Source of the DNA: Gemmatimonadales bacterium
Lineage (GTDB): Bacteria > Gemmatimonadota > Gemmatimonadetes > Gemmatimonadales > GWC2-71-9
Direction of reading: 5' to 3'
NCBI GenBank assembly: GCA_050733075.1
Contig: JBOHSD010000013.1
Location: 4,443 to 68,442 of the forward strand
Length of the DNA: 64,000 nucleotides
Position numbers and translations under genes: made by a program. The notes below the pieces were generated by a model that made no database searches, was not told the DNA's origin, and saw only the letters and a program-made list of their open reading frames with translations. This document shows positions 27,933 to 63,751 of this stretch, one piece after another. The stretch's first letter is position 1; each line of letters starts with the position of its first letter.

Positions 27933-28269
27933 TCCGTCCTCAGGTTTGGGGATGAGGCGCCTGGCGGCGCGCGAGTCATCTAGGGGCAGCCTGCCCCTGC
28001 CACCGGTCCCGCCAAGTATACGTAGCTGGGGTCCTCAGCGTCGAGTTGTACCCCGAAAAAGGCCGGTTGCGGTGTCCGGTCGCCTCGCCGCGCTGGGCCG
28101 GTACTGGGGCCCTAATCTCATTGCACGAGCGAGCTTGGGTGCCCATATTTTTCGGCTGCAACCCGTCCCCCATATCCTCACTCGACCCCCGGTGGCCTGT
28201 TTCCGGCCGACCTCGAGGGGGTCTGGCTCCCAGCCGGAGAGGTTTCAATGCTCTCACCAGGTCAGGCCC

Positions 28270-29358
28270 TTGCCGCTCGTTGATGACGGGCTGACGGGGG
28301 CGCGGATCCTCATCGTGGACGATGAGGAACCGAACATCCGGGTGCTGGAACGGATTCTCGCCCAGTCGGGATACCAGCTGGTCGAGAGCACCACCTCGCC
28401 GCGCACCGTCGGATCGCTTTGCGCCCAATGGAAGCCCGATCTGATCCTGCTCGATCTCCAGATGCCCGACCTCGACGGCATCGGGGTCCTGCGGGAGCTC
28501 AGGCCGCTCATCCCGGCCGACAGCTACCTTCCCATCCTCATACTCACCGGAGACCAATCTCCGGACGCCAAGCGCAAAGCCCTGTCGAGCGGAGCGACCG
28601 ACTTTCTCACCAAGCCGTTCGACATGACCGAGGTGCTCCTCCGCATCCGAAACCTGCTGGAGGCGCGGAGTCTCCACCTGCGGTTACAGAACCACAACCA
28701 GCTGCTCGAGTCGCGGGTGCGGGAGCGTACCCGGGCCCTCGAGAAAGCGCAGCACGAGATCCTCGACCGGCTGGCCGGGGCGGGAGAGTTCCGGGATGAC
28801 GAGACCGGGCAGCACACCCACCGGGTCGGCACCATGTCGGCCGCGCTCGCTCGGGCCCTCGGAGCGGATGCCCGCGCGGTTCACCTGATAGGCCGGGCGG
28901 CGCCGCTGCACGACCTGGGTAAGATCGGCATACCGGATCGGGTGCTGCTCAAGCCCGGCCCGTTCACCGCGGAAGACGCCGCCATCATGCGGACCCACAC
29001 CACCATCGGCGCTGAGATCCTTTCGGGCGGGGAGTCCGAGCTCATCCTGATGGCGGAGCAGATCGCCCTCAGCCATCACGAGCGTTGGGATGGAACCGGA
29101 TATCCCGAGCGCCGCGCGGGGACCGACATCCCCTGGCCGGCCAGAGTGGTGTCGGTGGCCGACGTCTTCGACGCACTCAGCCACGACCGGCCCTATCGCC
29201 CGGCCTGGCCGCTGGACGCGGTCATCCGCGAGATCGAGAAGGTTGCGGGGAGCCAGCTCGACCCCGAGATGGCGGGCAGGTTCCTGTCCTCATGTGTCAA
29301 AGACTACACCGAAACGCTCAACCTCCCACCCTGGCGGCGTGAGGGCCGCCGGGGGTGA
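28270..29358 (+). CDS. Response regulator with HD-GYP domain (c-di-GMP phosphodiesterase type)
   Basis: 3' part of track ORF 27820..29358, with a probable TTG start at 28270. REC (ILIVDDEEPN...DLILLDLQMPDLDG...TKPF). HD-GYP (HDLGKIGIP, HHERWDGTGYP). Confidence 0.85.
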   Translation: MPLVDDGLTGARILIVDDEEPNIRVLERILAQSGYQLVESTTSPRTVGSLCAQWKPDLILLDLQMPDLDGIGVLRELRPLIPADSYLPILILTGDQSPDAKRKALSSGATDFLTKPFDMTEVLLRIRNLLEARSLHLRLQNHNQLLESRVRERTRALEKAQHEILDRLAGAGEFRDDETGQHTHRVGTMSAALARALGADARAVHLIGRAAPLHDLGKIGIPDRVLLKPGPFTAEDAAIMRTHTTIGAEILSGGESELILMAEQIALSHHERWDGTGYPERRAGTDIPWPARVVSVADVFDALSHDRPYRPAWPLDAVIREIEKVAGSQLDPEMAGRFLSSCVKDYTETLNLPPWRREGRRG

Positions 29359-31690
29359 GCAGGTCCATCCGCCGCAGCAGATCCTGAAAGCGCGGATCGC
29401 TGCGCAGCTCGTCGAAAATCGGGTCCACGCTGAGATAGGGCATATTGGGGTCGCGCGCCTGGTACGCCTTCTCCAGCCAATCGAGGGCCGCCTCATTTTT
29501 CCCGGCCCGGGTGTAGAGGGTCCCGATCTGCCAGGGCGTGACATGTGAGGTCCGCGAGCGTGCTGTCAGCAGCTCCGCCACCCGGGTCAGGGCCCCGGAA
29601 TAGCCCGCCTCCGCCGAGCCCCGAGCCAAGGCTTCTGCGGCTTCTGCGTCACCCTTCGCGAGGAAGGAAGCCTTCCACACATCCAGCGCCTCAGGGTACA
29701 TCGCCTTCTGGTGGTAGGCCGAGCGCAGGGTCGCCAGGGCCACCGCGTTGTGCGGCTCGGTCTTGAGGGTCTCCTGGAGGAGTGCGATGGCATCGTCGAA
29801 ACGGCGGGCGTACATCAGGTCCATGGCGTAAAGACCCTGGAAGAGCGGGTTGAGCGGGTCCAGCTTCAGGGCGAGGTCGATCTGGGCCATGGCCTCTTTC
29901 GGCCGGCCGAGAATGTGCAACAGGTGGGAGTAGTAGGCGCGCGACTGAGGTCCGTTAGGGTTGAGCGCGATGGCCCGCCGGAAAGAGCTCTCCGCTCCCT
30001 TCCAGTCCCAATCGGTCCAGCATCTTATACCCGCCAATGTGAAGTGGACGTCGGCGAGGGTGCTATCCAGGGCCAGGGCTCTCGCGGCGGCCGCCTTCGC
30101 CAGCGGGCTCGCCTTGCTGGCAGCTACGTACCCGTTCTGCTGGCGTGCCACCCAGACCAGCGCGATTCCGGCATGAGCCAGCGCATAGCCCGGATCCCTC
30201 GTCAGCGCCAGGCGGAAGTACTGTTCGGCGGTCTCGAGATCCTGTGGCGTGGCTCTGCGCCAGTGGAACATCCCCTTGAGATAGGCCTCATACGCCTCGG
30301 GGTTCACCGGTTGCGCGTCGCTCAACCGGGCCTCCGCTTCCGGCGTCAGCGCCGAGCGAACCTCGCCGGCGATGGCCCGCGTCACCTGGCGGTGCAGGGC
30401 CTGCACGCTCCGCAGGTCGCCGGCATAGGCGCCTGCCCACAGCGTTTGCTCGGTCCCACCATCGACCAGTTGCGCCCGGATGAACACGCTGTCTCCCGAC
30501 CGGGCCACCGAGGCCTCCACCACGGCGTCGGCGTTCAGTTCCCGGGTGATCTCCCGAGCCGGCTTGATAGTTTGTTGGTACTGCATCACCGAGGTACGGC
30601 CGATGACCGGGACCCCCGCCTGGGCCAGCTCGGATATCAGCGCGTCGTGCATCCCCTGGGCGAAGTATTCCTGTTCGGGGTCGTTCGTGAGGTTGGCGAG
30701 GGGGAGCACGGCCAGACGCCGGATGGCGGGCTCCTCCACCATGCCGGACACCCACCAGCCACCGGCTCCCAGGAGCAGAACGCCGGCCGCCGTTCCCCAG
30801 GTACGACGGCGGCGGGCCGACCGGGCCCGACGAGTCTCCGCCGCGATCGACTCGGCCGTGCTGGCCCGGGCCAACTGGGTAGCAAACTGGTCGGCCGTAG
30901 CGAAGCGGTCGGCAGGCACCTTCGCCAGCGCTTTCTGGACCACGCGCTCCACCCCCTGGGGAACGGTCGGACGCAGTGTGCGCAGCGATGGGACCGGGTC
31001 GATGGCGTGACGCGCCATCACCGCCTGAGCCGTGGGCCCGGTGAAGGGCGGCTCACCACCCAGCATCTCGTAGACCAGGCAGCCCAGGCTGTAGATGTCG
31101 GAACGGGCGTCGGCCCCCCGCTCCCCGCTGGACTGCTCCGGGCTCATGTAGGCCGGCGTTCCCAGGGCCAGTCCCGTCTCGGTCAGCCGCGTACCCGCGG
31201 CATCCGCGGCGCGGGCGATGCCGAAGTCGGCCACCACGAACTGGCCACCCGAGAGGAGGACATTCTCGGGCTTGATGTCTCGATGCACCACCCCGTGGGT
31301 GTGGGCATGGGTCAGCGCGTCGGCCACGTTCCTGGCGATCCGCACCGCCTCGTCCAGGGGAAGATGCCGTTCACGATCGAGATGATCCCGGAGGCTTTCG
31401 CCCTCGACATACGGCATGACGTAGTAGAGGAGCCCGTCGGCCTCTCCCGAGTCGTGGAGCGGCAGGATGTTGGGGTGGGAGAGCCTGGCCGCTATCTCGA
31501 TCTCCCGGAGGAATCGCTCGGGACCGATGGCATGGGCCAGCTCCGCCCTGAGCACCTTCACCGCCACCGGGCGTCCGTGCTTCAGGTCGGTCGCGAGGTA
31601 TACCGTAGCCATGCCGCCGTGGCCGAGCTCGCGCTGTATGCGATAGCGGTCGCCGATAATGGACTGGAGGCGGGCAAGGGAATCGGCCAT
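29318..31690 (-). CDS. Ser/Thr protein kinase - TM - TolB-N-like domain - TPR repeats
   Basis: Track ORF 29318..31957. ATG at 31690 gives MADSLARLQSIIGDRYRIQRELGHGGMATVYLA. HRDIKPEN, DFG and SPEQ motifs. TPR-rich C-terminus. Confidence 0.85.
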   Translation of the reverse strand: MADSLARLQSIIGDRYRIQRELGHGGMATVYLATDLKHGRPVAVKVLRAELAHAIGPERFLREIEIAARLSHPNILPLHDSGEADGLLYYVMPYVEGESLRDHLDRERHLPLDEAVRIARNVADALTHAHTHGVVHRDIKPENVLLSGGQFVVADFGIARAADAAGTRLTETGLALGTPAYMSPEQSSGERGADARSDIYSLGCLVYEMLGGEPPFTGPTAQAVMARHAIDPVPSLRTLRPTVPQGVERVVQKALAKVPADRFATADQFATQLARASTAESIAAETRRARSARRRRTWGTAAGVLLLGAGGWWVSGMVEEPAIRRLAVLPLANLTNDPEQEYFAQGMHDALISELAQAGVPVIGRTSVMQYQQTIKPAREITRELNADAVVEASVARSGDSVFIRAQLVDGGTEQTLWAGAYAGDLRSVQALHRQVTRAIAGEVRSALTPEAEARLSDAQPVNPEAYEAYLKGMFHWRRATPQDLETAEQYFRLALTRDPGYALAHAGIALVWVARQQNGYVAASKASPLAKAAAARALALDSTLADVHFTLAGIRCWTDWDWKGAESSFRRAIALNPNGPQSRAYYSHLLHILGRPKEAMAQIDLALKLDPLNPLFQGLYAMDLMYARRFDDAIALLQETLKTEPHNAVALATLRSAYHQKAMYPEALDVWKASFLAKGDAEAAEALARGSAEAGYSGALTRVAELLTARSRTSHVTPWQIGTLYTRAGKNEAALDWLEKAYQARDPNMPYLSVDPIFDELRSDPRFQDLLRRMDLLTPGGPHAARVGG

Positions 31691-32008
31691 CAGGATGTAA
31701 TATGCAGGCCGGACACGGAGATGCACGGTCAAGGCAAGAGGCGTCCTAAAGGAGGCCCACCGAGCGTTGAGTCGCACGCCCTCGGTGAGTAAGGACCGAT
31801 GAGTGTTGCGGGGTCGCGAACACATCTGTCTCAGAGCGCCAGCCCATTGCTTCCGGGAACCAGCATCAACCAGACGATAACCAGTAGCTGAATGAGAGGT
31901 TATCCGCCGAATTCGATCGGGCGCCTTATATGGCCTGGCATATGCAATCGGATGCACTCACGGCCATACAGGATCTTTTCGGCTCGCTCCCCCGCGTCGG
32001 AGACCATC

Positions 32009-33064
32009 ATGTCGCCCCGCCCCACGCTCGAGTTCGCGCTCCCCCTTACCGTGCTTGCCTTGCTCGCTTGTGGTGAGACCACGACCCCGACCCAGCCCGA
32101 TATGGGCGGGGATCCGGCCGCCCTATCGCTGGCAGCGGCCACGAACAGTTGGACCCCACGGGCTCCAACGCCCTTTAGTGAAGAGTTCTACGGGTATGAT
32201 CTTGGGATGGCGCCCAACGCCGCCGGGCAATCAATCGTGTATACGTTCGGCGGCACCGATGGCGAAGGAGGCACCGGGTTCTCGGTGCAGGCCTACAACG
32301 TGACCACTGATACCTGGACGGGAAAGCTCTCCCGGGTCGGCGTGTTCCACTCCAACGGCGTCGGCAAGATCGGGGGCAAGCTCTACTTCTCGGGCGGCTA
32401 CAACGAGGTCGAGACCCCACCGAGCTTCTCCAATCTGGTGTGGGCTTACGACTACTCCCGTGACCGGATGATTCGGAAGGCCGATCTGCCGATCTTCAGC
32501 GCCGAAGGCGTCACGGGTGTCATTAATGGCAAGCTCTACGTGCTCCCGGGCGCCTGTTCCGGGGAGCGCTACCCCAATGCGGGCTACTGTGCCGAGGAAC
32601 CCACTCGCCGCTTCTACCGCTACGATCCGGCCACGAACACCTGGGTGAGCAGGCGACAAGCGCCGCACTTTCACCGGCAAGGCGCTGCTGCCGTGATCGA
32701 CGGCAAGTTGTATGTAGTGGGCGGCCACAACAACTTCACGCCCGTTGCCGATCTTGATGTCTACGATCCGGGGACGAACAGTTGGCGCAGCCTCGCTCCA
32801 ATTCCAACAGCCGGAGGCGCGGCCGGAGCAGCGTTGGGGGGACAATTCTATGTTGTTGTCCAGCAATTCAGCGGAGCCTCTTTCTCCTATCGCTTCTACG
32901 CCTACAACCGATTCACCAACCAGTGGAAGGAGAAGGCAGCTCCCAGCTTTGACCAAGGAGTAGGGGCGTTCCGCGGCAAGGGGTCAGTGACGAAAGTGAC
33001 GCTCGACGGCCGCCCCCGCCTCTTCATGGCCACTGGAGATCAGAGCGCGCTGTACACGCCATGA
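32009..33064 (+). CDS. Kelch-repeat beta-propeller lipoprotein
   Basis: Track ORF 31892..33064. The ATG at 32009 gives a lipobox signal (LALLAC). Repeated GG..GKLY..GG / W motifs. Confidence 0.75.
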   Translation: MSPRPTLEFALPLTVLALLACGETTTPTQPDMGGDPAALSLAAATNSWTPRAPTPFSEEFYGYDLGMAPNAAGQSIVYTFGGTDGEGGTGFSVQAYNVTTDTWTGKLSRVGVFHSNGVGKIGGKLYFSGGYNEVETPPSFSNLVWAYDYSRDRMIRKADLPIFSAEGVTGVINGKLYVLPGACSGERYPNAGYCAEEPTRRFYRYDPATNTWVSRRQAPHFHRQGAAAVIDGKLYVVGGHNNFTPVADLDVYDPGTNSWRSLAPIPTAGGAAGAALGGQFYVVVQQFSGASFSYRFYAYNRFTNQWKEKAAPSFDQGVGAFRGKGSVTKVTLDGRPRLFMATGDQSALYTP

Positions 33065-33104
33065 TGCAAGGGACCGAAACGGTGGGTGGCGAGAGATTAG
33101 AGGA

Positions 33105-33134
33105 AAGGCTTACCTGCTCAGGTAAGCCTTTTTT
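33105..33134 (+). terminator. Rho-independent terminator after the Kelch gene
   Basis: AAGGCTTACC-TGCTCA-GGTAAGCCTT perfect 10-bp stem followed by TTTT. Confidence 0.6.
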
Positions 33135-33162
33135 AAGGTGTGGTAAGTGCTGGTCTGAGAAG

Positions 33163-33235
33163 CTCCCGAGGAGGGACTCGAACCCCCGACCCGGTGATTA
33201 ACAGTCACCTGCTCTACCAGCTGAGCTACTCGGGA
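33163..33235 (-). tRNA. tRNA-Asn (anticodon GTT)
   Basis: Folded by hand. Acceptor TCCCGAG/CTCGGGA, D-arm GCTC-AGCTGGTA-GAGC, anticodon arm GGTGA-CTGTTAA-TCACC, T-arm GGGGG-TTCGAGT-CCCTC. CCA is not encoded. Confidence 0.9.
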
Positions 33236-33245
33236 AAGCGTAACA

Positions 33246-33274
33246 ATTGTAATGACTTAGCCAGCCGTACTCAA
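33246..33274 (-). promoter_or_regulatory. Candidate sigma70-type promoter for tRNA-Asn (TTGAGT-17 nt-TACAAT)
   Basis: Minus-strand reading: the -35 element is at 33274-33269 and the -10 element at 33251-33246. The -10 ends 10 nt before the mature tRNA 5' end. Confidence 0.4.
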
Positions 33275-33289
33275 GACCTCATTACTCGT

Positions 33290-33309
33290 AAGTTATCCTA
33301 AAGTTATTC
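33290..33309. repeat. 20-nt AT-rich direct repeat, left copy (AAGTTATCCTAAAGTTATTC)
   Basis: Exact match to 37710-37729, read directly. Confidence 0.9.
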
Positions 33310-33556
33310 CTCCGCGCGCCTAAGCTAGCGGCCTGGCCCCCCGGGTCAAGGCGCGTAGGCGGGAAACCTTCGGAACGCGGAGCGAAACAGGCACCCTGGC
33401 TTTGGGCGGCCAGACTCTATAGTATCAGGCAGAAATTCGGCGTTTCTTCAAGTATCAGTACTCTCGATCGTTGTAGACTACGTCACTGCCTTCCGCCATT
33501 TCGGACCAGGGTGCCCGACGAAGCCCTGCGGCAAGGGAGATCCATCCTCAAGTGTC

Positions 33557-33973
33557 ATGTCACCGCCGCGTCATAGTCGCCCGCCACCGGAAGAACTGAA
33601 ACGGCTGCTCGCCCGCACGCCGTTCATCCAAAACGAGTGCGACCTCGATCTGCTGGCGTTCTTGCACCGGCATCCGCGCACCCTGCTGACCAGCGAGCAA
33701 CTGGCCGGGTTTGTCGGCTACAACATCAAGGATGTCGCCAGAGCGGTGGATGCCTTCATCGAGGCCGGCCTGCTGGGACGGGCGCCTCAGCATTCGATGC
33801 ATGCGGCACGCATGTTCCTTCTCCTGATCGATGGCCCGCATGGAGGACCAGTACGCGCGTTGCTGGAAATGGTTACCACCCGAGAAGGAAAGCGGGCCAT
33901 TCTGGAAGCCTTGAACGCGCCAGGACCCCACCCAGAACCTGGCCCCGCTCTGGAACTGCGGGTGGCGAGATAG
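33557..33973 (+). CDS. Hypothetical wHTH-like protein (first gene of islet)
   Basis: Track ORF. The segment LTSEQLAGFVGYNIKDVARAVDAFIEAGLL looks like a MarR/wHTH recognition region. No family recognised. Confidence 0.5.
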   Translation: MSPPRHSRPPPEELKRLLARTPFIQNECDLDLLAFLHRHPRTLLTSEQLAGFVGYNIKDVARAVDAFIEAGLLGRAPQHSMHAARMFLLLIDGPHGGPVRALLEMVTTREGKRAILEALNAPGPHPEPGPALELRVAR

Positions 33974-34000
33974 CTAGCAGCTCAAAGCTGGAGAGTTTTC

Positions 34001-35551
34001 ATGCCTGAATCTGATCTGGTAAGAACCGGTGTCGCCGGGCTCGATGAGATCTTGTCCGGCGGAATTCCGCGCGGCAACCTGATACTCCTGGAAGGCGCCA
34101 TCGGCTGCGGCAAGACCACGCTGGGCGTGGAGTTTGTCTACCGCGGGGCTAGCCAGTTTGATGAACCCGGCATCATCGTCCTCTTCGAGACGTCGCCCGA
34201 CAAGATCATCCGGGATGCCCAGCGCTTCGGCTGGGACCTGCGCGAGTTGGAACGCACCAACCGGTTGAGAATCGTGTTCACCAGTCGCGACGTCTTGCGC
34301 CAGGAGCTGCAGCAGGCCGACAGTGTGTTGCTCGAAGAGGCCACCAGGATCGGCGCCCGCCGCATCTTCATCGATGGTGTGGCCCGACTGGGCGGTGGCA
34401 ACGGCACCCAGGAGTCCCGTTCGGCGTTTCATGTCTTCACCGAGGGGCTGCAGCGGGAGAACCTGACGGCTATTCTGGCGATTGAAGCCTCGGAGTACAA
34501 CCCCGACCAATCCGTTTCGCTGCCCGAGGAATCCATTGCCGACACGGTCATCCGCCTGAGGATGGAGGACAACCAGCGCGCCGTTGTCCGCTCGATCGAG
34601 ATCGTGAAATCACGGGGCCAGCACTACCAGATGGGGCGCCACACCTTTCGCATCATCGATGGCCACGGCCTCCAGGTGTACCGCCGGGTGCAGGCACCCC
34701 GGGGCGGGCAGCGCGACCGCGCCGCGGCCTACGATCCCACCACCCGCATCTCGACTGGAATCCCCGGGCTCGACGAGCTCACCAATGGGGGATACTTCGT
34801 CGGCAGTACCACCGTGGTGGCAGGAATCTCCGGTGTCGGCAAGAGCGTGATGGGTCTCCAGTACATCGCGGAAGGCGCGCGGCGCGGCGAACGCAGCCTG
34901 ATGCTGAGCCTGGACGAGCAGGTGGAACAGATCATCCGCAATGCCGCCAGCATCGGCATCGATCTTCGCCGCGAGGTGAAGCGTAGCCTGATCCGCGTAG
35001 AGTATGAGCCGCCCCAGGAGATCGAGGTGGATGTGCACTTCCACCACATCGAGCAACTGGTGGAGGAGTTCCAGCCCAAGCGGGTGGTAATCGACAGCCT
35101 GTCCACTTACGGTTCGAATCTCGGCACCCAGGGAAGGATCTTTCGAGATTTTTTCCACGCCATGGTGGCCCTGATGAAGGAGCATCAGATCGCGGCAGTC
35201 TACAATCACGAAAACCCGGAGATGCTGGGGATGGCGTCCATGATGGGCGACTTCGCCATGAGCTCGCTGGTGGATAACATCATCCTCATGAACTGGGCCG
35301 AGCTGGGTGACACGTTCCGCCTGGGGCTGACCATCGCCAAGATGCGCGCCAATCCGGTCATCAGGACCACGCGCGAGGTTGAGGTTCTTGACGGCCAGGG
35401 CATGCGCGTGCTGCCGCGAGAGCTGCGCGTGCCGGCGGACCAGCACCCATTCTCCAGCTACGCCGGGCTGGTGTCGCGGGCCCCCGAGCGGCGCGACCTT
35501 CACCGGCAAGCTGAAGTAAAGGACAAAGCTCGTGGTAAATCCCCGCGCTGA
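34001..35551 (+). CDS. KaiC-like double RecA-domain ATPase
   Basis: Track ORF. GGAGAG Shine-Dalgarno 7 nt upstream. Two KaiC-type domains, each with GLDE..GGIP/GGYF, Walker A (GAIGCGKT, GISGVGKS) and Walker B (RIFIDGV, VVIDSLS). Confidence 0.85.
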   Translation: MPESDLVRTGVAGLDEILSGGIPRGNLILLEGAIGCGKTTLGVEFVYRGASQFDEPGIIVLFETSPDKIIRDAQRFGWDLRELERTNRLRIVFTSRDVLRQELQQADSVLLEEATRIGARRIFIDGVARLGGGNGTQESRSAFHVFTEGLQRENLTAILAIEASEYNPDQSVSLPEESIADTVIRLRMEDNQRAVVRSIEIVKSRGQHYQMGRHTFRIIDGHGLQVYRRVQAPRGGQRDRAAAYDPTTRISTGIPGLDELTNGGYFVGSTTVVAGISGVGKSVMGLQYIAEGARRGERSLMLSLDEQVEQIIRNAASIGIDLRREVKRSLIRVEYEPPQEIEVDVHFHHIEQLVEEFQPKRVVIDSLSTYGSNLGTQGRIFRDFFHAMVALMKEHQIAAVYNHENPEMLGMASMMGDFAMSSLVDNIILMNWAELGDTFRLGLTIAKMRANPVIRTTREVEVLDGQGMRVLPRELRVPADQHPFSSYAGLVSRAPERRDLHRQAEVKDKARGKSPR

Positions 35552-37574
35552 CCCGCTCTTCAGCTCCGAGCTGTGGGAGTCAGCGCTGGAGAAGTTTGCC
35601 ACCGTGGCCCACCTGACCGTCCGCTTGTTCGATACGGACGCGCGCGCTGTCCTCGGCCCGGTGCATCCCACGCCGTTGTTCCAGGTGTTCGAGGAAACCG
35701 GCTACGACCCCGGTATTTTTGCCGAATGTGCCCGCCGCTGCATCGCGCAGACCGAGGAACGTCCCGCGGTTGTGGTCTCTCAGTTCCAGGGTTTGGCTGT
35801 CGTAGGGGCCTCGCTGATGCTGGAGGGCAAGATCGTCGGGGCGGCGGTTGCCGGATACGCCTTTGCGGACTTCTGTCAGGTATCGGAGGTTCAGCGCCTG
35901 GCGCGCCAGTCCGGCATTGGCTTCGAGCGGCTGTGGGAGGTCGCGCGCAAGGAGCCGCCGGTACCCCAACGCCGGTTGCTGGTGCATGGCGAGCTGCTGC
36001 AAGTCCTCGGTGATTCGCTGCTGCGAGAGAACTACCGCACCCGACAGTACGAGCACGCCGCCGCCATCGTGAATTCCTCCGACGATGCCATCATCAGCGA
36101 GAATCTCGAAGGCGTTATTACCAGTTGGAATCGGGGGGCGGAGCGTCTCTTTGGCTATACCGCGCAAGAAGCCGTTGGGCGGCCGATAGCCATTCTCACG
36201 CCTCCTGGGCGGATCGACGAAGCCCCGCGCATTCTAGAGCGGATCCGCCAGGGAGAGTCCATCGAACATTATGAGGTGGTCCGCCGCCGCAAGGACGGCA
36301 GGTTGCTCGACATCTCGTTGACGGCTTCTCCCATCACCGCTGCGCGCGGTCAACTTGCCGGCATTTCGGAGATCGGACGCGATAACACCGACCGCAAACG
36401 GGCCGAGGAGGCGCTCCGCAGCGCTGACCGCATGGAGGCGGTGGGCCGGCTGGCCGGCGGCGTGGCCCACGAGGCCAACAACCAGATGACGGTGGTGCTG
36501 GGTTGCGCGGGTTTCGCCCTCCGCCAGCCTGATCTGGCACCCGAGCTGCACCAGGAGCTCCTCAATATCCGCAAGGCGGCAGAGCGAACTGCCGCCATCA
36601 CCGCACAGCTGCTGGCCTTCAGCCGGCGCCAGATACTCCAGCCGGCGCCATTGGACCTGAACGAGGTGGTCCGCGCATTCGCGCCGATTCTTCACCGGAC
36701 GCTGGGCGATGCAAGCGAGCTGGAGCTAGAGCTCTCGCCGTGTGAGGTCGCGGTTGTCGCCGACCGGGGCCAGCTGGAGCAGGTCCTGCTCAACCTGACC
36801 CTCAACGCCCGCGATGCGATGCTAAATAGCGGCAGGCTCACGATCGGGACCGGCATCGTGACACTCCCCCGGCTGGGGCCCCACAGCGTCCTCACAGAGC
36901 CCCTGCCTCCCGGTCAGTACGGGGCGCTCACGGTGCAGGACACGGGACAGGGCATGAGCCCGGAGACGGTGACCCGGATCTTTGAGCCGTTCTTCACCAC
37001 CAAGCCCATTGGCGACGGCACCGGCCTCGGACTCTCCACTGTGTACGGCATCGTGCGGCAATTGGGCGGCACGATCCGGGTGCATAGCGCACCCAGCAGC
37101 GGCACGATCTTCCGGATGTATCTGCCGCTGACAGAGTTGCCCAAAGCGGCGGAAGCCGATCGGCCCACCGGGCCCTGGGCCGCTGCGACCGGCACCGTCC
37201 TGGTTGTGGAGGATGAGCCGGCGGTGCGCACCTTGGCGGTGCGCGCGTTGCAAGCCGATGGGTTTCAGGTGCTCGAGGCCGGGCACGGCCAAGAGGCCGT
37301 CGAGCTCCTCGGCAGGCACCGGGGTTCCGTACAAGCCGTCGTCGCTGATGTGGCGATGCCGGTCATGAGTGGTCCCGAGCTAGCCGAGCGGCTGGCGCAA
37401 TCCCATCCGGGAACCCCAGTGCTCCTGATGTCGGGCTATGCCGCCGAGGAGTTGGTGCGGCGGGGAATGCTGCCGAAGGACGCCGCACCGCTGCTGACGA
37501 AACCGTTTGCGCCGGAAGTCCTGGTCGAGCGGGTGCGGGCCCTGGTGGAATCGGTGCGATCCCTGGCTGGATAG
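35532..37574 (+). CDS. Hybrid sensor histidine kinase: PocR-like N-terminal domain - PAS - HisKA - HATPase_c - REC
   Basis: Track ORF. GTG start 20 nt inside the kaiC-like 3' end. PAS (ITSWNRGAERLFGYTAQEAVGRP), H-box GGVAHEANNQM, G-boxes DTGQGM and GTGLGLS, REC (VLVVEDEP...DVAMPVMSG...TKPF). Confidence 0.85.
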   Translation: MVNPRADPLFSSELWESALEKFATVAHLTVRLFDTDARAVLGPVHPTPLFQVFEETGYDPGIFAECARRCIAQTEERPAVVVSQFQGLAVVGASLMLEGKIVGAAVAGYAFADFCQVSEVQRLARQSGIGFERLWEVARKEPPVPQRRLLVHGELLQVLGDSLLRENYRTRQYEHAAAIVNSSDDAIISENLEGVITSWNRGAERLFGYTAQEAVGRPIAILTPPGRIDEAPRILERIRQGESIEHYEVVRRRKDGRLLDISLTASPITAARGQLAGISEIGRDNTDRKRAEEALRSADRMEAVGRLAGGVAHEANNQMTVVLGCAGFALRQPDLAPELHQELLNIRKAAERTAAITAQLLAFSRRQILQPAPLDLNEVVRAFAPILHRTLGDASELELELSPCEVAVVADRGQLEQVLLNLTLNARDAMLNSGRLTIGTGIVTLPRLGPHSVLTEPLPPGQYGALTVQDTGQGMSPETVTRIFEPFFTTKPIGDGTGLGLSTVYGIVRQLGGTIRVHSAPSSGTIFRMYLPLTELPKAAEADRPTGPWAAATGTVLVVEDEPAVRTLAVRALQADGFQVLEAGHGQEAVELLGRHRGSVQAVVADVAMPVMSGPELAERLAQSHPGTPVLLMSGYAAEELVRRGMLPKDAAPLLTKPFAPEVLVERVRALVESVRSLAG

Positions 37575-37709
37575 GGACAATTGTCGCAGAACGCGGGGAG
37601 TTCCGGCATTCTTAGCTCCGGGGTGTGTTGTGTGTTGCCTTAGGCTCTCATTCCGAATCGACTCAGCCAACGCCCGCCGTCTCCATTGGGTGAAACGTAC
37701 GACTGAGAA

Positions 37710-37729
37710 AAGTTATCCTAAAGTTATTC
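37710..37729. repeat. 20-nt AT-rich direct repeat, right copy
   Basis: Exact match to 33290-33309. Confidence 0.9.
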
Positions 37730-37872
37730 TTGGGTGCCAAAATTAGGCGATTTCAGTGGAGTCGAACAAAATCGTACGCACTCGTCACTCGCGACGTAAG
37801 CTGTTGCTCTAAAATGAACTGTGTGAGGATTACAACGACTTACAGTTTCGGCTGGAAAGCAGCGAGGAGTAG

Positions 37873-37910
37873 TTAACAGTCACCTGCTCTACCAGCTGAG
37901 CTACTCGGGA
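37873..37910 (-). repeat. Orphan copy of tRNA-Asn nucleotides 1-38 (5' half through the anticodon loop)
   Basis: Exact 38-nt identity with 33198-33235. No matching 3' half is adjacent. Confidence 0.9.
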
Positions 37911-38299
37911 TTGTCGGCGGGTGAGCGCCTGCTTTGCGCCCTGCCGGCAGGGCAAAAACTAGCGGCGCGAGCCAGGTTAGGCAACGAGAACCCGCGAGTC
38001 ATCATCCCACCTTCATCACCCCTCCCTGCTAGAGAATCGGCCTGTCCAATTTGAGTGCCTCAGCGACGAAAGCTGCATACGACGTGAGGCGCAGCACAGC
38101 CAAGCCCCGCCAACCGAGGTATCTTGGCGGCGCCGTTGGTGCAGTCTGATCCCGGTTCAGCCCCTGAAAGTGCCACTGAGCAGCCGCTCGCAGACCTGAG
38201 GACTATGTGAGTAGTCACTCTTGCAAAGTGTCAAGAAAGGCACCCTGTTTGTTGACACCTCGTCCCTCCAGTTTGCACCTAAGTCATTGTTGAGAAAAA

Positions 38300-38308
38300 T
38301 GTTACAAT
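38300..38308 (+). promoter_or_regulatory. Extended -10-like element TGTTACAAT upstream of holB
   Basis: Sits in an AT-rich stretch 44 nt before the ATG at 38352. No good -35 element. Confidence 0.25.
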
Positions 38309-38351
38309 ATCCATACTACCGCTTTTCCGCCCACTGCGTAGCTTCGGTTCG

Positions 38352-39443
38352 ATGCCTTTACCCCCGCTGATCGGGCACCAGGCAACCCGGGAACGCCTGG
38401 CCCGGGCTGTGCGGGGTGGCAGGCTGCCCCAAGTCCTGCTGCTCAGCGGACCGGCAGGGGTAGGCAAGCAGCGGCTGGCGCTGTGGCTAGCTCAACTGCT
38501 CTCGTGCGAGCAGCGGGCCGCAGAGCCTTGTGAACGGTGCCGGGCCTGCCGCCTGGTGGCTGGTCTCTCTCATTCCGACGTGCATTGGTTTGTCCCGATC
38601 CCCAGGCCCAAGGCCTCCGATCCGGACAAACAGGTAGAAGAAGCGGCCCTGGCCATCGCCCAGGTGCTGGAGGAGCGGCGAACCGTGCCTCTGTACCAGC
38701 CGGCCGACGGCATGGCCGCGCACAGCCTGGCCAGCGTGCGGCTGATCCAGCGCCACGCGGCGCTCACGTCGGTGGAGGGTGGTCCGCGGGTCTTCATCCT
38801 GGGCGAGGCCGACCGGCTCATCGCCCAGGAGTCGAGCCAGGAAGCGGCCAACGCGCTGCTCAAGCTCCTGGAAGAGCCGCCGCCGGGCAGTCTGTTCGTG
38901 CTGACGACGGTGGAGGCTCGGCGGCTGCTGCCCACCATGCGCTCCCGGGCAGTGCCACTCCGCCTGGGCCGCTTGAGCGACGCCGAGGTGACTGGGTTCC
39001 TGAAGGCGCAGTTGCAGCCCGCGCTTTCGGCCAGAGAGCTGGAGCACCGGGTGGCCCTGGCCGAAGGATCCATCGGTTGCGCCATCGCAGCCGGAGACGA
39101 TTCCGGCAAGGCGCTGCAAGCGGCGCAGCAGTGGCTGGAGGCAGTGCTGGCCGGGTCGGGTCCCTCGCTCGAGCGCGCGCTGCGCCAGCCGCCCTGGTCG
39201 GCCCGCGGCGAGTTTACCGCCATGCTCGACGCAGTCGCCGAGACCCTGGGCGAAGCGGCAAGAGGAACGCTGGGGCAGCCGGTGCGCCGGCCGGTTCCGC
39301 CGGCACTGCTGCGCTACCGGCATCCCGATCCGCTGCTCAAGGCCATGGAACACGTGGCCGACGCACGCGAGGCGGCATGGGGAAACGTGAACCCCCAGAT
39401 CCTGCTGGCCGTTCTAGGCGAGGAGCTGGCGGAGGTCCTGTGA
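38352..39443 (+). CDS. holB: DNA polymerase III subunit delta'
   Basis: Track ORF. GRLPQVLLLSGPAGVGKQRLALWLAQ (AAA+ clamp-loader P-loop-like), Cys cluster CERCRAC, RVFILGEADRL. Confidence 0.8.
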   Translation: MPLPPLIGHQATRERLARAVRGGRLPQVLLLSGPAGVGKQRLALWLAQLLSCEQRAAEPCERCRACRLVAGLSHSDVHWFVPIPRPKASDPDKQVEEAALAIAQVLEERRTVPLYQPADGMAAHSLASVRLIQRHAALTSVEGGPRVFILGEADRLIAQESSQEAANALLKLLEEPPPGSLFVLTTVEARRLLPTMRSRAVPLRLGRLSDAEVTGFLKAQLQPALSARELEHRVALAEGSIGCAIAAGDDSGKALQAAQQWLEAVLAGSGPSLERALRQPPWSARGEFTAMLDAVAETLGEAARGTLGQPVRRPVPPALLRYRHPDPLLKAMEHVADAREAAWGNVNPQILLAVLGEELAEVL

Positions 39444-39919
39444 AGCTGACGCATCTCGACGAGCGGGGCCGGGCCCGCATGGTAGACGTGGGCGGCAAGC
39501 CCGAGTCCGAGCGAGCCGCCGAGGCCGAAGGGGTGGTGCGCATGTCCCGGCAGGCGTTCGACCTGGTGGCAGCTCAGGCAATCACTAAGGGAGACGTGCT
39601 CGCCGTCGCCGAAGTCGCGGGCACGATGGGCGCCAAACGGACCGGCGACCTGATCCCGCTGTGTCACCCCATCGGCCTGGACACCGTCCAGGTGGAAGCC
39701 CGGCTGGAGCCTGAGCTCCCGGGCGTGAGAGTAACTGCCGTGGCTAAGGCCACCGGGCGCACCGGCGTCGAGATGGAAGCGCTCACCGCCGTCGCGGTGG
39801 GGTGTCTCACGGTGTACGACATGGTCAAGGCGGCCGACCGGGCCATGACTATCGAAGAGGTGCGGCTGGTGAGCAAGACCGGGGGAACCCGGGGAGATTG
39901 GCGCCGGACCGAGTCGTAG
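39440..39919 (+). CDS. moaC: Cyclic pyranopterin monophosphate synthase MoaC
   Basis: 3' part of track ORF 38537..39919. GTG at 39440 overlaps the holB stop. LTHLDERGRARMVDV, KGDVLAVAEVAG, LIPLCHP and MEALTAV motifs. Confidence 0.9.
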   Translation: MKLTHLDERGRARMVDVGGKPESERAAEAEGVVRMSRQAFDLVAAQAITKGDVLAVAEVAGTMGAKRTGDLIPLCHPIGLDTVQVEARLEPELPGVRVTAVAKATGRTGVEMEALTAVAVGCLTVYDMVKAADRAMTIEEVRLVSKTGGTRGDWRRTES

Positions 39920-39956
39920 AGGCGGAACGGCTTCTCATAAAGAAAGGGGTTGGCGC

Positions 39957-40658
39957 GTGGCCAGACCAATCGATTACGGGGAACCGAAGCCAGTCACGGC
40001 GGAGCGGATCCTGCTGCGGGGCGGGGTGCTGTTGGCCACCGCCATCGGCATCGGAGCGCTGGGCGGCTGGAACAAGCTCGTCCGCGCGACCGACGACTCG
40101 GCCACCCCCGACATCAGCGCGGTCGCACGCCAGATGGGAAGCCTGGGCGAGCAGCTCGAGGCGGCCCGGGGTGAGAACGTGGTCATCAAGCTTCAGCTCG
40201 AGCGGGCCAACGCCATCATCGCCAACTCGAGCCGCTACCGGATTCCCGCCGATCTGTCGGCGGCCATCTACGATATCGCCCTGAGCGAGGGGATCGATCC
40301 CTCGCTCGGCTACCAATTGGTCAAGATAGAGAGCGGCTTCAAGGCCGACGCTCGAAGCCGGATGGAGGCGTACGGCTACACCCAGCTCCAGGTGCCTACG
40401 GCCCGATTCTACCAGCCGGGCATCACTCAGCGCGACCTGTACCACCGGGACACCAACCTGCGCATCGGGTTCCGGTTCCTGAACGACCTGCTGAAGCGGT
40501 TCAACTATGACGTGCACCTGGCGCTGCTGGCCTACAACCGCGGCCCGGCCCGGGTGAACCAGATTCTGGCCAAGGGCGGTAACCCCGCCAACGGCTACTC
40601 CGACGCGGTGCTCAAGGGCTTCCAGCCCATCAGCACCACCGAGTCTCTGGTGCGCTAG
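39957..40658 (+). CDS. Membrane-anchored lytic transglycosylase (SLT domain)
   Basis: Track ORF. N-terminal TM. Catalytic region LVKIESGFKADA...GYTQL...LLAYNRGPARV. Confidence 0.75.
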   Translation: MARPIDYGEPKPVTAERILLRGGVLLATAIGIGALGGWNKLVRATDDSATPDISAVARQMGSLGEQLEAARGENVVIKLQLERANAIIANSSRYRIPADLSAAIYDIALSEGIDPSLGYQLVKIESGFKADARSRMEAYGYTQLQVPTARFYQPGITQRDLYHRDTNLRIGFRFLNDLLKRFNYDVHLALLAYNRGPARVNQILAKGGNPANGYSDAVLKGFQPISTTESLVR

Positions 40659-59472: not shown

Positions 59473-60795
59473 TCAGCTCCCGGGGCGCGCCAGATAATCG
59501 AGTACCAGGGAGGACATCAGACGCATACCGACGGCAACTGCCTGGTCGTCCGCGTAGAAGGTGGGTGTGTGATGCCCTCCGGAGATTCGGCCCGGAGGAA
59601 CGGCGCCGAGAAAGAAGAAGAAGCCAGGTACCTCGTTTGCGAAGTAGGCGAAATCCTCAGCACCCGTGATTGGTGGTCGCTCCCGAAGGCTCGCGCCTCC
59701 GACCAGCCGGTGCAGCGTGGGCAGGAGGCGGTCTGTCAGAGCCGTGTCATTGACGGTTACCGGGTTGCTCCTGTCAAACTCGAGGCTGAAGCTCGCCCGC
59801 GAGGCTCGGGTTACGCCATCGAAGATCTCGCGCATACGCGTCTCGACGGTGTCCTGCACCGCCATGTCGAAAGTCCGGATGGTGCCCTCCAGCTCGACCT
59901 CACCCGGGATGATGTTGTTGCGGGTCCCTCCTCGTATGATGCCAACGGTAAGCACGCTTGGAGTAAGCGGCGGGAGATTTCGAGAGCGGATCGTCTGGAG
60001 GGCCAGGACGATCTGTGAGGCAATCACTACCGGATCCACCGAGAGGTGGGGCGCCGAACCATGTGCGGGTCGTCCCCGCACGGTTGCGCGCCAAAGCGTA
60101 GCAGCGGCCAGGGCTGGGCCACGACTATATGAAACGCTCCCGAGGAGCTCGTGCTCCCCCTCTTGCTCGGGCGGGTCACCATTCATATGGAGGGCGAAGA
60201 TTGCTTCGGGCTTCAGCTTGGCGAAGACCCCTTCTTCAATCATCAATTCGGCGCCGCCGCGCTCACCAGCGGGAGCTCCTTCCTCGGCCGGCTGGAAAAT
60301 GAACATGACAGTGCCGGCCAGCCGGTCACGCATGGGCGCGAGCACGGCGGCGACCCCGAGTTGAATCGCGGTGTGAAGATCGTGGCCGCAAGCATGGGCG
60401 ACCCCAACCTCACGCCCCAGGTATGTCGTTCGCGCTGTAGAGCGAAACGGAAGGTCGGTGGCCTCGGTGACCGGCAACGCGTCCATGTCGGCTCGCACCG
60501 CGACGACTGGCCCCGGCAGCTTGCCTCTCAGCAACGCGACGACGCCCGTGTGTGCTATTCCAGTCCGAATCTCCAGGCCGAGACGCCGCAGGTGGGAAGT
60601 CACCAGCTCCGCAGTCTTGACCTCGCGATTACTGAGCTCCGGGTGCTGGTGAATCTGCCTACGGTAGCGGACCATCTCGCCCGCCAGGCTCTCAACGGCC
60701 CTTGCGACCTCTCGGTCGTGAGATTGCGCGTGGACCTGCGTGGCTCCGGCGCTCAGGAGGGCAGCCATGGAGACAGCGCACGCACATGAATTCAA
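59473..60795 (-). CDS. M20D-family amidohydrolase (secreted)
   Basis: Track ORF with a signal peptide. HQHPELSNRE, HACGHDLH and FQPAEEG motifs. Confidence 0.85.
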   Translation of the reverse strand: MNSCACAVSMAALLSAGATQVHAQSHDREVARAVESLAGEMVRYRRQIHQHPELSNREVKTAELVTSHLRRLGLEIRTGIAHTGVVALLRGKLPGPVVAVRADMDALPVTEATDLPFRSTARTTYLGREVGVAHACGHDLHTAIQLGVAAVLAPMRDRLAGTVMFIFQPAEEGAPAGERGGAELMIEEGVFAKLKPEAIFALHMNGDPPEQEGEHELLGSVSYSRGPALAAATLWRATVRGRPAHGSAPHLSVDPVVIASQIVLALQTIRSRNLPPLTPSVLTVGIIRGGTRNNIIPGEVELEGTIRTFDMAVQDTVETRMREIFDGVTRASRASFSLEFDRSNPVTVNDTALTDRLLPTLHRLVGGASLRERPPITGAEDFAYFANEVPGFFFFLGAVPPGRISGGHHTPTFYADDQAVAVGMRLMSSLVLDYLARPGS

Positions 60796-61571
60796 GCGTT
60801 CGCCTTTCGAGAGCTCTCGAGCACCGCGCTCACTACTTTCATCATTTCCGCCACGGTGAACGGCTTTTCAATGGTCCGTGACGCGCCAAGCAGCTTGGCC
60901 TCGGGGAGCAGATCTATCTGGTTGGCTCCCCCACCGGACATGGCAATGATTGGAACCTGAGGGCTTTGCGCCCGCAGCTCCATCAGAGTCTCTAAACCGT
61001 CCTTTTCCGGCATGAATAAGTCCAGGATGACCAGGTCTGCACCGGCCTCTCGCCAGATCCGTATCGCCTCGTTCCCGTTCCCGGCCAGCATGACATCGTG
61101 CCCTGCGGTGGTGAGCACTTTGGCCAGTGACGATCGGATACCCGCGTCGTCATCCGCCACCAAAATCCGCTTCCTCTGACGATGCTGCTCCAGAGCTTCC
61201 TTGACCTTCGCCAGGGCCTCGCCTCGAGTGTACGGCTTGGCCAGGAAGGGAACGCTCAACGTGGTTTGCCCATAACGGGCCAGAACCTCGGCGGGATGAG
61301 CCGACATGTACAGAATACGCTGGGCCGGCCACTGCTCTAACACATGGCGCCCGATGGCGACACCGTCACAGTCGGGCATGACCACGTCGATCATGAGAAG
61401 ATCCACGCGGCCGTTGGCCTGGTGGAGGGCATCCAGCGTCTCGGCACAACTGGAGGCCTCGAGCACTCGGAATCCCTCCTCACTGAGGATCCGGTACGCG
61501 ACCCGGCGCGAGACCGACTCGTCATCTACCACTAAGATGGTGGCGGGGCCGTGGAGCGGCGGAGGAGACAA
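60792..61571 (-). CDS. Tandem-receiver response regulator (REC-REC, no output domain)
   Basis: Track ORF. Two REC domains (ILVVDDES...IDVVMPDCDG...AKPY; ILVADDDA...LDLFMPEKDG...EKPF). 4-nt overlap with the M20 gene. Confidence 0.8.
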   Translation of the reverse strand: MSPPPLHGPATILVVDDESVSRRVAYRILSEEGFRVLEASSCAETLDALHQANGRVDLLMIDVVMPDCDGVAIGRHVLEQWPAQRILYMSAHPAEVLARYGQTTLSVPFLAKPYTRGEALAKVKEALEQHRQRKRILVADDDAGIRSSLAKVLTTAGHDVMLAGNGNEAIRIWREAGADLVILDLFMPEKDGLETLMELRAQSPQVPIIAMSGGGANQIDLLPEAKLLGASRTIEKPFTVAEMMKVVSAVLESSRKANA

Positions 61572-62844: not shown

Positions 62845-62900
62845 TTAGGTACTGTTTTGCTCGCCTAGACTAAATTGTTTTGTCCCTTGATGAGGTCCGC

Positions 62901-63326
62901 GTGTCTAGTCCGTTTCCGCATGCCGCGACGACCATCCTAGTCGTCGATGATGAAAGAATGTCCCGGCGCGTGGCCTACCGCATTCTGAGCGAGGCGGGTT
63001 ACCGGGTGCTGGAGGCGGAGGACGGTGCCGAGGCCCTGGACGTGCTCGGCAAGGCTCGCGCCGGCGTGGACCTGCTGATACTGGACGTTGTGATGCCCGG
63101 GTGCGACGGTGTCGAGCTGGGCCGACGCGTCCTGGAGCAATGGCCCGACCAGCGCATCCTCTACATGTCAGCGCATCCAGCGGAGGTGCTGGTCCGCCAC
63201 GGGCTGCCCTCGCTCGACGTTCCCTTCCTCGCCAAGCCATACACCCGTGACGAGGCACTGACCAAGGTGCACGAGGCGCTGGAGCGCCGTCGTAGCTCCC
63301 GAGCCGGGACGCGGACCGGCCGCTAG
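62901..63326 (+). CDS. Single-domain response regulator (paralog of the first REC of 60792..61571)
   Basis: Track ORF 62880..63326. The GTG at 62901 has GAGG 5 nt upstream. Shares runs RRVAYRILSE, RILYMSAHPAEVL and VPFLAKPYTR with the tandem-REC protein. Confidence 0.75.
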   Translation: MSSPFPHAATTILVVDDERMSRRVAYRILSEAGYRVLEAEDGAEALDVLGKARAGVDLLILDVVMPGCDGVELGRRVLEQWPDQRILYMSAHPAEVLVRHGLPSLDVPFLAKPYTRDEALTKVHEALERRRSSRAGTRTGR

Positions 63327-63373: not shown

Positions 63374-63751
63374 TTGCTGATCCTCGTCACAGAACGGGCT
63401 TATGACTGGCCGGTAGAACCATTTCGCGCGGTGGCCGATGCAGGTGGGTTATTTATCCGGCTCTACGACCTCAGGCACACCTCGGCCACCATTCTGCTGA
63501 AGGAGAAGGTGAGCCCCAAGATTGTGCAGGAACGACTGGGACACTCCACGATCACATTGACGATGGACACCTACTCCCACGTCTTGGAAGGGATGCAGGA
63601 AGCAGCGACAGAGGCGATGGAATCCGCTCTGGTGGCGCAAGGCCGAGCCGAGCACAACCTCACGGGTCTGGAAACCTCATCTCCGTCAGGATCCGGGCGA
63701 CGCGCGGATGGGAATGCAGGTTCTCGAACGACCCCGACCGCAGTAAGATGA
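63374..63751 (+). pseudogene. Tyrosine recombinase (phage-integrase family) C-terminal remnant
   Basis: Only about 75 aa of the catalytic C-terminus is recognisable: LYDLRHTSATILL...VQERLGHSTITLTMDTYSHV (box II H-x-x-R / H / Y). The N-terminal and box I regions are absent. The ORF tail overlaps the convergent gene. Confidence 0.6.

Follow-up and report, generated by a model that had tools for sequence, protein, structure and literature searches.

A probable decayed integrative island supplying the 5′ half and promoter of a tRNA-Asn gene in Gemmatimonadales

Integrative islands that target transfer RNA (tRNA) genes usually regenerate the 3′ part of the gene and come to lie downstream of it, and the anticodon loop is reportedly one of the sublocations in Williams' classification of tRNA integration sites. 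In lambda, L5, and HP1, the attachment (att) site of the element, attP, consists of a core flanked by arm-type sites for the integrase (Int). Island-finding software also admits the opposite polarity with respect to the tRNA gene (tDNA): the Islander filter rejects only 5′ fragments located downstream and 3′ fragments located upstream of the tDNA, so that a 5′ fragment located upstream passes (PMC4383910). Islands at the 5′ end of arg2 in Klebsiella were described as occupying a novel sublocation, with a repeat comprising the acceptor strand, D-stem, and D-loop (10.1101/2020.11.02.365908), and cis-mobilizable elements (CIMEs) have lost their integration genes and kept both attL and attR (PMC5704250). 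Here we analyze an islet at positions 33236-37872 of a 64,000-nt stretch, hereafter the window, from a Gemmatimonadales bacterium (assembly GCA_050733075.1, contig JBOHSD010000013.1, positions 4,443 to 68,442 of the forward strand), which is bounded by two copies of the 5′ half of tRNA-Asn and separates this tRNA from holB. The islet is probably a decayed, integrase-less integrative island, inserted in the anticodon loop of tRNA-Asn and supplying its 5′ half and promoter. To our knowledge, islands that regenerate the 5′ half of a tRNA and supply its promoter have not previously been described in the phylum Gemmatimonadota.

ARAGORN detected a single tRNA gene in the window, the functional tRNA-Asn(GTT), on the minus strand at 33162-33235 with its anticodon at position 34; Rfam placed the same gene at 33163-33235 (67.8 bits). 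Nucleotides 1-38 of the tRNA (TTAACAGTCACCTGCTCTACCAGCTGAGCTACTCGGGA), which begin at +1 and run to the final anticodon-loop base, where loop meets stem, occupy 33198-33235 and recur exactly once, at 37873-37910, on the same strand and 4675 nt away, with no match in 100 shuffles even at 3 mismatches. The bases bordering the two copies differ on both sides. The proximal copy, which would be the proximal att copy, includes the 7-nt anticodon loop (33198-33204), the presumed crossover region, and nucleotides 39-74 of the gene are contiguous with the host flank carrying a Kelch gene; this 3′ flank is syntenic with that of two relatives, L005 and L054, in which the site is empty (L numbers denote the loci and contigs compared). 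The distal copy is an orphan 5′ half of tRNA-Asn on the minus strand that still has its native promoter attached, as expected of a displaced host fragment, and no remnant of a tRNA-Asn 3′ half was found anywhere in the 64 kb at up to 12 mismatches over 36 nt. A full tDNA and a cognate end-fragment, in the arrangement that Islander uses to recognize islands (PMC4383910), are located on one replicon in the same orientation, and the 5′ fragment lies upstream in the tRNA sense.

The window sequence is also contained in contig CDHZYM010000064.1 of the metagenome-assembled genome GCA_975305025.1. To compare the site with its counterparts, the holB product was scanned against species-representative genomes, which yielded 54 loci, nearly all labelled Gemmatimonadales or Gemmatimonadota. 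At most of these, tRNA-Asn, encoded on the minus strand, precedes holB-moaC-SLT by an otherwise empty 260-890 nt, and in total about 30 related Gemmatimonadales have empty sites, including L005 and L054, where the order is exactly Kelch – tRNA-Asn – promoter – holB. Toward holB, the DNA that borders the orphan 38-mer (37911-38351) has its homolog in the region upstream of tRNA-Asn in these empty-site relatives, including the native A-type tRNA-Asn promoter (promoter A, TTGCCT-17-TAGTTT, 37984-37956, minus strand), which lies at equal distance 5′ of the intact tRNA in L004, L005, L007, L010, L054, and L066 and in the window is now predicted to drive the orphan half only. When 33236-37910 was removed in silico, joining 33040-33235 to 37911-38010, the restored sequence aligned without a break to L054, L005, L066, L010, and L007. 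The 3′ half with its Kelch flank and the orphan 5′ half with promoter A thus rebuild the gene of the empty site, from which it follows that one ancestral gene was split. A decayed tandem tRNA-Asn gene, which a preliminary description of the locus had named as the scenario that would undo an att interpretation, was rejected on the same grounds, as there is no 3′-half remnant and the two halves rebuild a single empty-site gene. That description had otherwise read this part of the locus well: ARAGORN and Rfam agree with it on a tRNA-Asn(GTT) on the minus strand, the exact-repeat and remnant searches agree that nucleotides 1-38 recur perfectly in the same orientation with no 3′ half attached, and the duplicated part is indeed the 5′ half. 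The unoccupied tRNA-Asn/holB junction that it proposed to look for in related genomes is present in most of them and, with the seamless restored junction, supports its view of the repeats as a scar of site-specific integration.

The neighborhood of the site also varies among relatives. The closest holB relatives, L064-L067, are represented by short contigs of which L066 alone is informative; there, genes for an acetyltransferase, a 117-aa protein, and a 67-aa protein directly adjoin tRNA-Asn. Compared with L066, the window has about 5.1 kb of extra DNA on the 3′ side of the tRNA (28059-33160), encoding a response regulator-HD protein (RR-HD), a Ser/Thr kinase-TPR protein, and the Kelch protein, in which no repeat of a tRNA 3′ fragment was found; the 3′ flank of tRNA-Asn is thus variable as well. 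In two more distant Gemmatimonadales (L033 and L035, 3600-10000), a resistance-nodulation-division (RND) efflux operon (OEP, AcrB, HlyD-like) lies between tRNA-Asn, with an A-type promoter, and holB, which makes the interval between this tRNA and holB a general hotspot of insertion.

At its tRNA-proximal end, the islet carries a promoter directed at the tRNA. This element (promoter C, TTGAGT-17-TACAAT, 33274->33246, minus strand) ends 10 nt before tRNA +1; the consensus scan placed it on the islet side of the junction, as first reported in the preliminary description, and its hexamers are conserved in L028, L068, L080, L111, L125, and L126, making seven islands in all. The functional tRNA is presumably now transcribed from promoter C. 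Further inside the islet lies a B-type promoter-like element (promoter B, TTGACC...TAGCTT, 33322-33349, minus strand), a homolog of the promoter that normally precedes tRNA-Asn in other Gemmatimonadales; it is found directly 5′ of tRNA-Asn in L006, L013-18, L034, and L055, and within the islands L028, L080, L111, L125, and L126. Three 11-bp-phased units (33279-33311) are located between promoters C and B, the first degenerate and the second and third (AGTTATCC / AGTTATTC) together forming a 20-mer at 33290-33309. This 20-mer (AAGTTATCCTAAAGTTATTC) is a second exact direct repeat, absent from the preliminary description, which recurs at 37710-37729 near the distal end of the islet as two AGTTATYC units 11 nt apart. 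The motif AGTTATYC occurs only four times in the 64 kb, each time at an end of the islet, at distances of 54 nt and 143 nt from the core. Three intact units of this type are present in L125 and L126, equivalents stand beside a tRNA-Ala gene in L069, and the distal repeats are conserved in L108/L008 and L126. A repeated motif on both arms, distant from the core, matches the layout of a lambda-type attP, and the AGTTATYC repeats are probably arm-type integrase-binding sites.

The distal repeats overlap a putative integrase promoter (TTGGCA-17-GATAAC, 37712-37740, minus strand), both hexamers of which are conserved in an alignment of the window with L108 and L126; it would have driven the integrase gene (int) and now faces a spacer. 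Adjacent to the repeats is a conserved non-coding right end (RE) of about 105 nt (37730-37838), part of the distal att arm, with 86% identity to L008/L108 and 71% to L126. Across the predicted att sites, the cores are identical at 38/38 positions and the arm repeats at 20/20, and the RE is conserved. The RE has no Rfam match and no convincing conserved RNA structure, and its interpretation as a small RNA was rejected, as the structure predicted by RNAalifold was weak (-10 kcal/mol), covariation was unconvincing, and an Rfam search of 32900-38500 returned the tRNA only. A scan of viral contigs for the arm repeat gave only low-GC chance matches.

Three co-directional genes, recognized as such in the preliminary description, make up the cargo of the islet. 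The first (33557-33973, plus strand) encodes a 138-aa protein (p138) without a match in Pfam, NCBIfam, or PADLOC, always found 5′ of this type of KaiC and present in the same position in L068, L069, L070 (Nitrospira), L125, L127, and L128. The second (34001-35551, plus strand) encodes a double-domain KaiC-like ATPase (Pfam PF06745, 6.4e-89) with 77-91% amino acid identity to proteins of Nitrospira, Terriglobales (Acidobacteria), and others; the Nitrospira and Acidobacteria loci have the same gene order as the islet cassette, and the island ends are absent there. The third (35532-37574, plus strand) encodes a hybrid histidine kinase with PocR, PAS, HisKA, HATPase, and receiver domains (Pfam, NCBIfam). 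A defense-system role for the cargo was considered and set aside, PADLOC giving only a weak P-loop match (mad8) for the three proteins. A transposon or insertion sequence with a target-site duplication was likewise discarded: the two ends of the islet are not matched to each other by any of the 25 longest inverted repeats listed for 31000-40000, no transposase domain was found by Pfam, and the duplication is 38 nt long and gene-specific.

As the preliminary description had it, the non-coding flanks of the islet are AT-richer, with GC contents of 0.55 and 0.50 vs. about 0.63-0.66 for the genes. Its statement that codon usage in the islet is less biased toward GC at third codon positions (GC3) did not hold, as the KaiC and kinase genes (0.812 and 0.791) are at the level of 23 neighboring genes (mean 0.797 +/- 0.042), holB and the Kelch gene have values of 0.816 and 0.747, and only p138 is low (0.683); the comparison of islet composition and GC3 with the flanks, which it had recommended, revealed no foreign signature.

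Comparison with other genomes places the islet in a family whose ends are conserved and whose cargo varies. Besides the window, no fewer than six genomes have family ends 5′ of tRNA-Asn and one has them beside tRNA-Ala, and every member found lies upstream of its own tRNA. The tRNA-proximal end, ordered promoter C, AGTTATYC repeats, and promoter B, abuts tRNA-Asn +1 and is present in L028, L080, L111, L125, and L126 with 77-93% identity; in L068, promoter C alone stands beside tRNA +1, without the repeats. The distal end (repeats and RE) was found in L008/L108 and L126. The KaiC cassette is the cargo in L068 and L125, with 81-85% nucleotide identity to the window, and L068 repeats the order of the window, Kelch – tRNA-Asn – same cassette – holB. 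Other members carry genes for a TPR protein and a lipoprotein (L080/L108) or for HTH and Schlafen/AlbA_2 proteins (L126). In L028 (4912-9480), the same proximal end is followed by an inverted and distantly related KaiC gene (25% identity) and a hybrid kinase gene (46%); this island has no distal end, orphan fragment, or promoter A, and native intergenic sequence resumes at about 9480. In L069 (5903-6110), beside a cassette 82% identical to the window at the nucleotide level, promoter B and three 11-bp-phased repeat-like units (GGTTATCC / AGCTATCC / AGCTGTTCC) abut tRNA-Ala(TGC), which suggests a target switch within the family.

The cassette itself, a signaling cassette of p138, KaiC-like, and hybrid kinase genes, is present in several phyla and has a wider distribution than the ends. 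In L128, it lies downstream of a tRNA-Thr gene, and no family ends were found in the contexts of the other close KaiC homologs, L127 and L128. A p138–KaiC–PAS/kinase cassette also occurs in a Nitrospira metagenome-assembled genome (MAG; GCA_024998685.1, L070/L071, 9569-13606), with 84% amino acid identity in KaiC and a synonymous divergence of 0.89, and with neither island ends nor a tRNA; for such a module, conservation across phyla is unusually high. Relative to L068, the cassette genes of the window have a synonymous divergence of 0.48-0.57, compared with 0.76-1.41 in seven genes of the flanks, and the cassette copies in L125 and in the tRNA-Ala-linked L069 are equally distant from the window, at about 0.5. 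These values suggest that the cassette copies share a younger ancestor than their hosts, which would fit horizontal spread, and alternatively they may reflect stronger constraint on the cassette.

Relatives also carry the integrase that the window islet lacks. L108, which is from the same genome as L008 and overlaps L080, has the distal repeats followed by a minus-strand gene for the C-terminal catalytic part of a tyrosine recombinase (...RRHVTHLLYARVPVQSVSKRVGHGNPTIAMKVYAHV...), and a search with this fragment returned three short Phage_integrase proteins. L125 begins inside the int gene, the stop codon of which is separated by 20 nt from the stop codon of the kinase gene of the KaiC cassette; beyond the cassette come promoter B, three repeats, promoter C, and the intact tRNA-Asn. 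The order in L126 is RE, repeats, integrase fragment, other cargo, proximal end, and tRNA. The full-length family integrase, P0244 (397 aa), has a Phage_integrase domain and a weak SAM-like N-domain and is 92-97% identical to the L126 and L125 pieces; with the L108 piece included, identity to P0244 is 84-97%. At the corresponding position, where relatives carry int on the minus strand, convergent with the kinase gene, the window has only a 135-nt spacer (37575-37709), in which, as in the rest of the right end, no integrase remnant was detected by all-frame translation or by tblastn with P0244. Since relatives have int between the kinase gene and the distal repeats, we infer that the spacer marks an integrase deletion and that the window islet is a derivative of an L125-type element. 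The preliminary description was therefore correct in that no recombinase is encoded in 33236-37872 (Pfam, NCBIfam, and tblastn with the full-length family integrase), but the absence that it found unusual is probably a secondary loss, int being present in L125, L126, and L108.

Several further loci touch on tRNA-Asn fragments or recombinases. In L108 (1706-1750), an orphan tRNA-Asn 3′ part (nucleotides 32-76, loop included) and a terminator hairpin directly follow the truncated int stop codon; the orphan fragments of the window (nucleotides 1-38) and L108 (nucleotides 32-76) both contain the 7-nt loop, which fits a crossover there. In L125, a Methyltransf_21 gene separates the intact tRNA from an orphan 3′ part (nucleotides 39-76; 6341-6383) found 1.3 kb downstream, which looks like a classical 3′-side island scar on the opposite side of the same tRNA. 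A 72-aa piece of the family integrase (P0398) comes from an NCBI contig of 18,728 nt, a length shared with the longest contig that carries a 76% identical holB homolog (P0065); a further tRNA-Asn/holB site may be occupied there. Elsewhere in the window, the sole recombinase piece is a 125-aa open reading frame (ORF; 63374-63751, plus strand) corresponding to the C-terminal catalytic part only of a tyrosine recombinase (...LYDLRHTSATILLKEKVSPKIVQERLGHSTITLTMDTYSHV...), with 32% identity to the L108 int fragment and 41% to P0244; two similar response-regulator ORFs (60792-61571, minus strand, and 62880-63326, plus strand) precede it, no tRNA is nearby, and the region, some 25 kb from the islet, may represent a further mobile element that has decayed.

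What is seen directly in the window is a tRNA split at the loop boundary, with element DNA at tRNA +1 and the host 5′ half left with the host promoter. The probable route to this arrangement would begin with a circular element encoding a tyrosine integrase, whose attP would be ordered promoter B – repeats – promoter C – tRNA nucleotides 1-31 – loop (crossover) – 39 nt – RE – repeats – int. Strand exchange within the 7-bp anticodon loop would have targeted the tRNA-Asn of a Kelch – tRNA-Asn – promoter A – holB locus. The Kelch-side product is an intact tRNA with its 3′ part in host DNA and its 5′ part and promoter in element DNA, and on the holB side the host's own 5′ half is stranded behind its native promoter. 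The integrase gene would later have been deleted in the lineage of the window, and the islet could now move only with a cognate integrase acting in trans; by analogy, it resembles a cis-mobilizable element. The perfect identity of the two 38-mers could be due to conversion by the neighboring tRNA gene, to a relatively recent event, or to att sites that have stayed in use.

A number of observations weigh against this reconstruction. For the window islet, neither an integrase, nor an excisionase, nor a circular form has been seen, and the composition of its genes is native-like; an integrase inside the island, which Islander looks for (PMC4383910), is lacking in the islet taken alone and present in the family. 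The tRNA-Asn gene is so conserved that identity of the 38-mer by itself does not prove recombination, and the holB relatives are at most 87% identical, which leaves no presence/absence comparison within one species. Among the genomes found, the orphan 38-mer is kept only in the window; it is lost from L008/L108, L028, and L068, although promoter A or the native intergenic region is still there. An att site that replaces the 5′ half would accordingly rest on one junction and on the constant upstream position of the family, and the internal tRNA 3′ part that follows the int fragment in L108 is not predicted by a simple 5′-replacing model. Finally, binding at the arm sites and the promoter activities are predicted from sequence only, and the N-terminal ~65 residues of P0244 have no Pfam match to an arm-binding domain at E<0.01.

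A stronger version of the same scheme, in which the islet is a still-mobilizable member of an undescribed Gemmatimonadales integrase lineage that systematically replaces the 5′ half and promoter of its target tRNA (Asn, and Ala in a relative) by crossover in the loop, is possible, though we think it unlikely. If it were true, the element would take over transcription of what is possibly the only tRNA-Asn gene, imprecise loss of the element end would be lethal and act as a built-in stabilization, the intact 38-mer and arm repeats would reflect use of the att sites by an integrase in trans, and the native promoter would still transcribe the orphan 5′ tRNA half, antisense into the element arm.

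A different history, in which a classical element carrying int followed by the tRNA 3′ part in attP, or an element with the whole tRNA-Asn in attP, integrated, leaving two copies that were complete or split in another way, and nucleotides 39-76 were later lost from the holB-side copy by rearrangement or deletion, appears doubtful to us. The L108 order of int fragment, anticodon loop, nucleotides 39-76, and terminator hairpin is the classical attP layout, an orphan 3′ part of the classical type is present in L125, 1.3 kb past the same tRNA, and arm unit 3 and promoter B resemble the B-type host upstream region (L006), which suggests that the 5′ part was captured from a host. However, a random deletion ending precisely between nucleotides 38 and 39 is improbable, and what follows the orphan half (39 nt and the RE) is not tRNA but DNA of the element, also present in L108 and L126; moreover, the window retains no 3′-half remnant, and all family members lie upstream of the tRNA and abut its +1. 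The 3′ part in L108 may indicate that the family arose from a classical element with a captured 5′ half and B-type promoter, or from a two-core circle.

Insertion or duplication without site-specific recombination, by which foreign or paralogous DNA bearing its own complete tRNA-Asn (with a B/C-type promoter) and the cassette arrived and the native copy was truncated through decay or illegitimate recombination, is very improbable. It would draw on the fact that the tRNA 5′ half shows 0-2 differences in the 38-mer among Gemmatimonadales relatives, so that its identity might be mere conservation, on the variability of both sides of the tRNA (the RND operon in L033/L035; the RR-HD, Ser/Thr kinase, and Kelch genes relative to L066), and on the presence in L068 of the cassette without an orphan fragment. 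Yet both window halves are orthologous to the halves of a single gene in L005 and L054, the break coincides with the anticodon-loop boundary, and the conserved ends, the repeats on both arms, and the cognate integrase in relatives also speak against it.

An assembly artifact, with the contig mis-joined across the 38-nt repeat and the islet not truly between tRNA and holB, is hardly credible even for a metagenome-assembled genome in which an independent Logan contig (L003) ends after 30 nt of each repeat and leaves the outer junctions unspanned, because L068 independently has Kelch – tRNA-Asn – same cassette – holB, L080 and L125 show the join of tRNA to left end, L108/L008 show the RE joined to promoter A and holB, and a 38-nt repeat is shorter than reads or typical assembler k-mers. 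L003 itself (SRR27067773_20454, 4697 nt) corresponds to window 33206-37902, that is, the islet and 30 nt of each repeat; its interpretation as an excised circle was rejected, as its ends are those expected where a de Bruijn graph with k=31 breaks at the repeat.

The decayed-island interpretation has several implications. Most tools and textbooks assume 3′-end regeneration and a downstream element, and the window offers a clean comparative case of the 5′-half configuration in a poorly studied phylum. The locus further delineates a small family whose arms are conserved and whose cargo is exchangeable, with candidate sites of the arm type and P0244 as its cognate integrase; this family could be used to study the evolution of att polarity, the effect of promoter takeover on tRNA expression, and the handling of 5′-side and integrase-less islands by island finders. 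The consequences for annotation are modest: the orphan 38-mer would be a displaced att fragment and not a gene, and the KaiC–kinase cassette would be horizontally mobile cargo.

Compared with described systems, the islet shares with Islander-type islands an intact tDNA at one end and a direct-oriented tDNA fragment at the other, a boundary at the anticodon loop, an empty site in relatives, an int gene beside one att arm in the family, and targets that switch (Asn, Ala); it differs in that it regenerates the 5′ half (nucleotides 1-38), lies upstream, must bring a promoter, and has lost its integrase. The layout of a lambda-type attP is approached when the islet is circularized on paper, giving repeats – 143 nt – 38-nt core – 54 nt – repeats, with tandem repeats about one helical turn apart and int beside one arm in relatives, but the islet repeats are direct on both arms, the arm-binding domain of the family integrase is not recognized by Pfam, and the sites are predicted. 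Like the CIMEs of Streptococcus and other Firmicutes (PMC5704250), the islet has lost integration and transfer genes, and its 38-nt cores and arm repeats look intact in sequence. CIMEs derive from decayed integrative and conjugative elements (ICEs) or integrative and mobilizable elements (IMEs) and have been experimentally mobilized after accretion (PMC5704250), whereas the window islet is known from sequence alone and is integrated on the 5′ rather than the 3′ side. The closest parallel in polarity is Klebsiella pneumoniae arg2A-VII (integrase clade I.d), where the island is upstream and the repeat is the 5′ part of the tRNA gene (10.1101/2020.11.02.365908); the Klebsiella islands, however, encode their integrase and belong to another phylum and another integrase lineage, and in the window the repeat extends through the anticodon loop (nucleotides 1-38). 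The suggestion in the preliminary description that duplication of the 5′ half sets the islet apart from known elements can thus be kept in part, as the 5′ half is real and uncommon, but this configuration is already recognized, both in the Islander filter (PMC4383910) and in the Klebsiella arg2 islands (10.1101/2020.11.02.365908). The window islet is accordingly of a known kind, a tDNA-targeting tyrosine-integrase island, in a decayed state and in a rare but recognized configuration.

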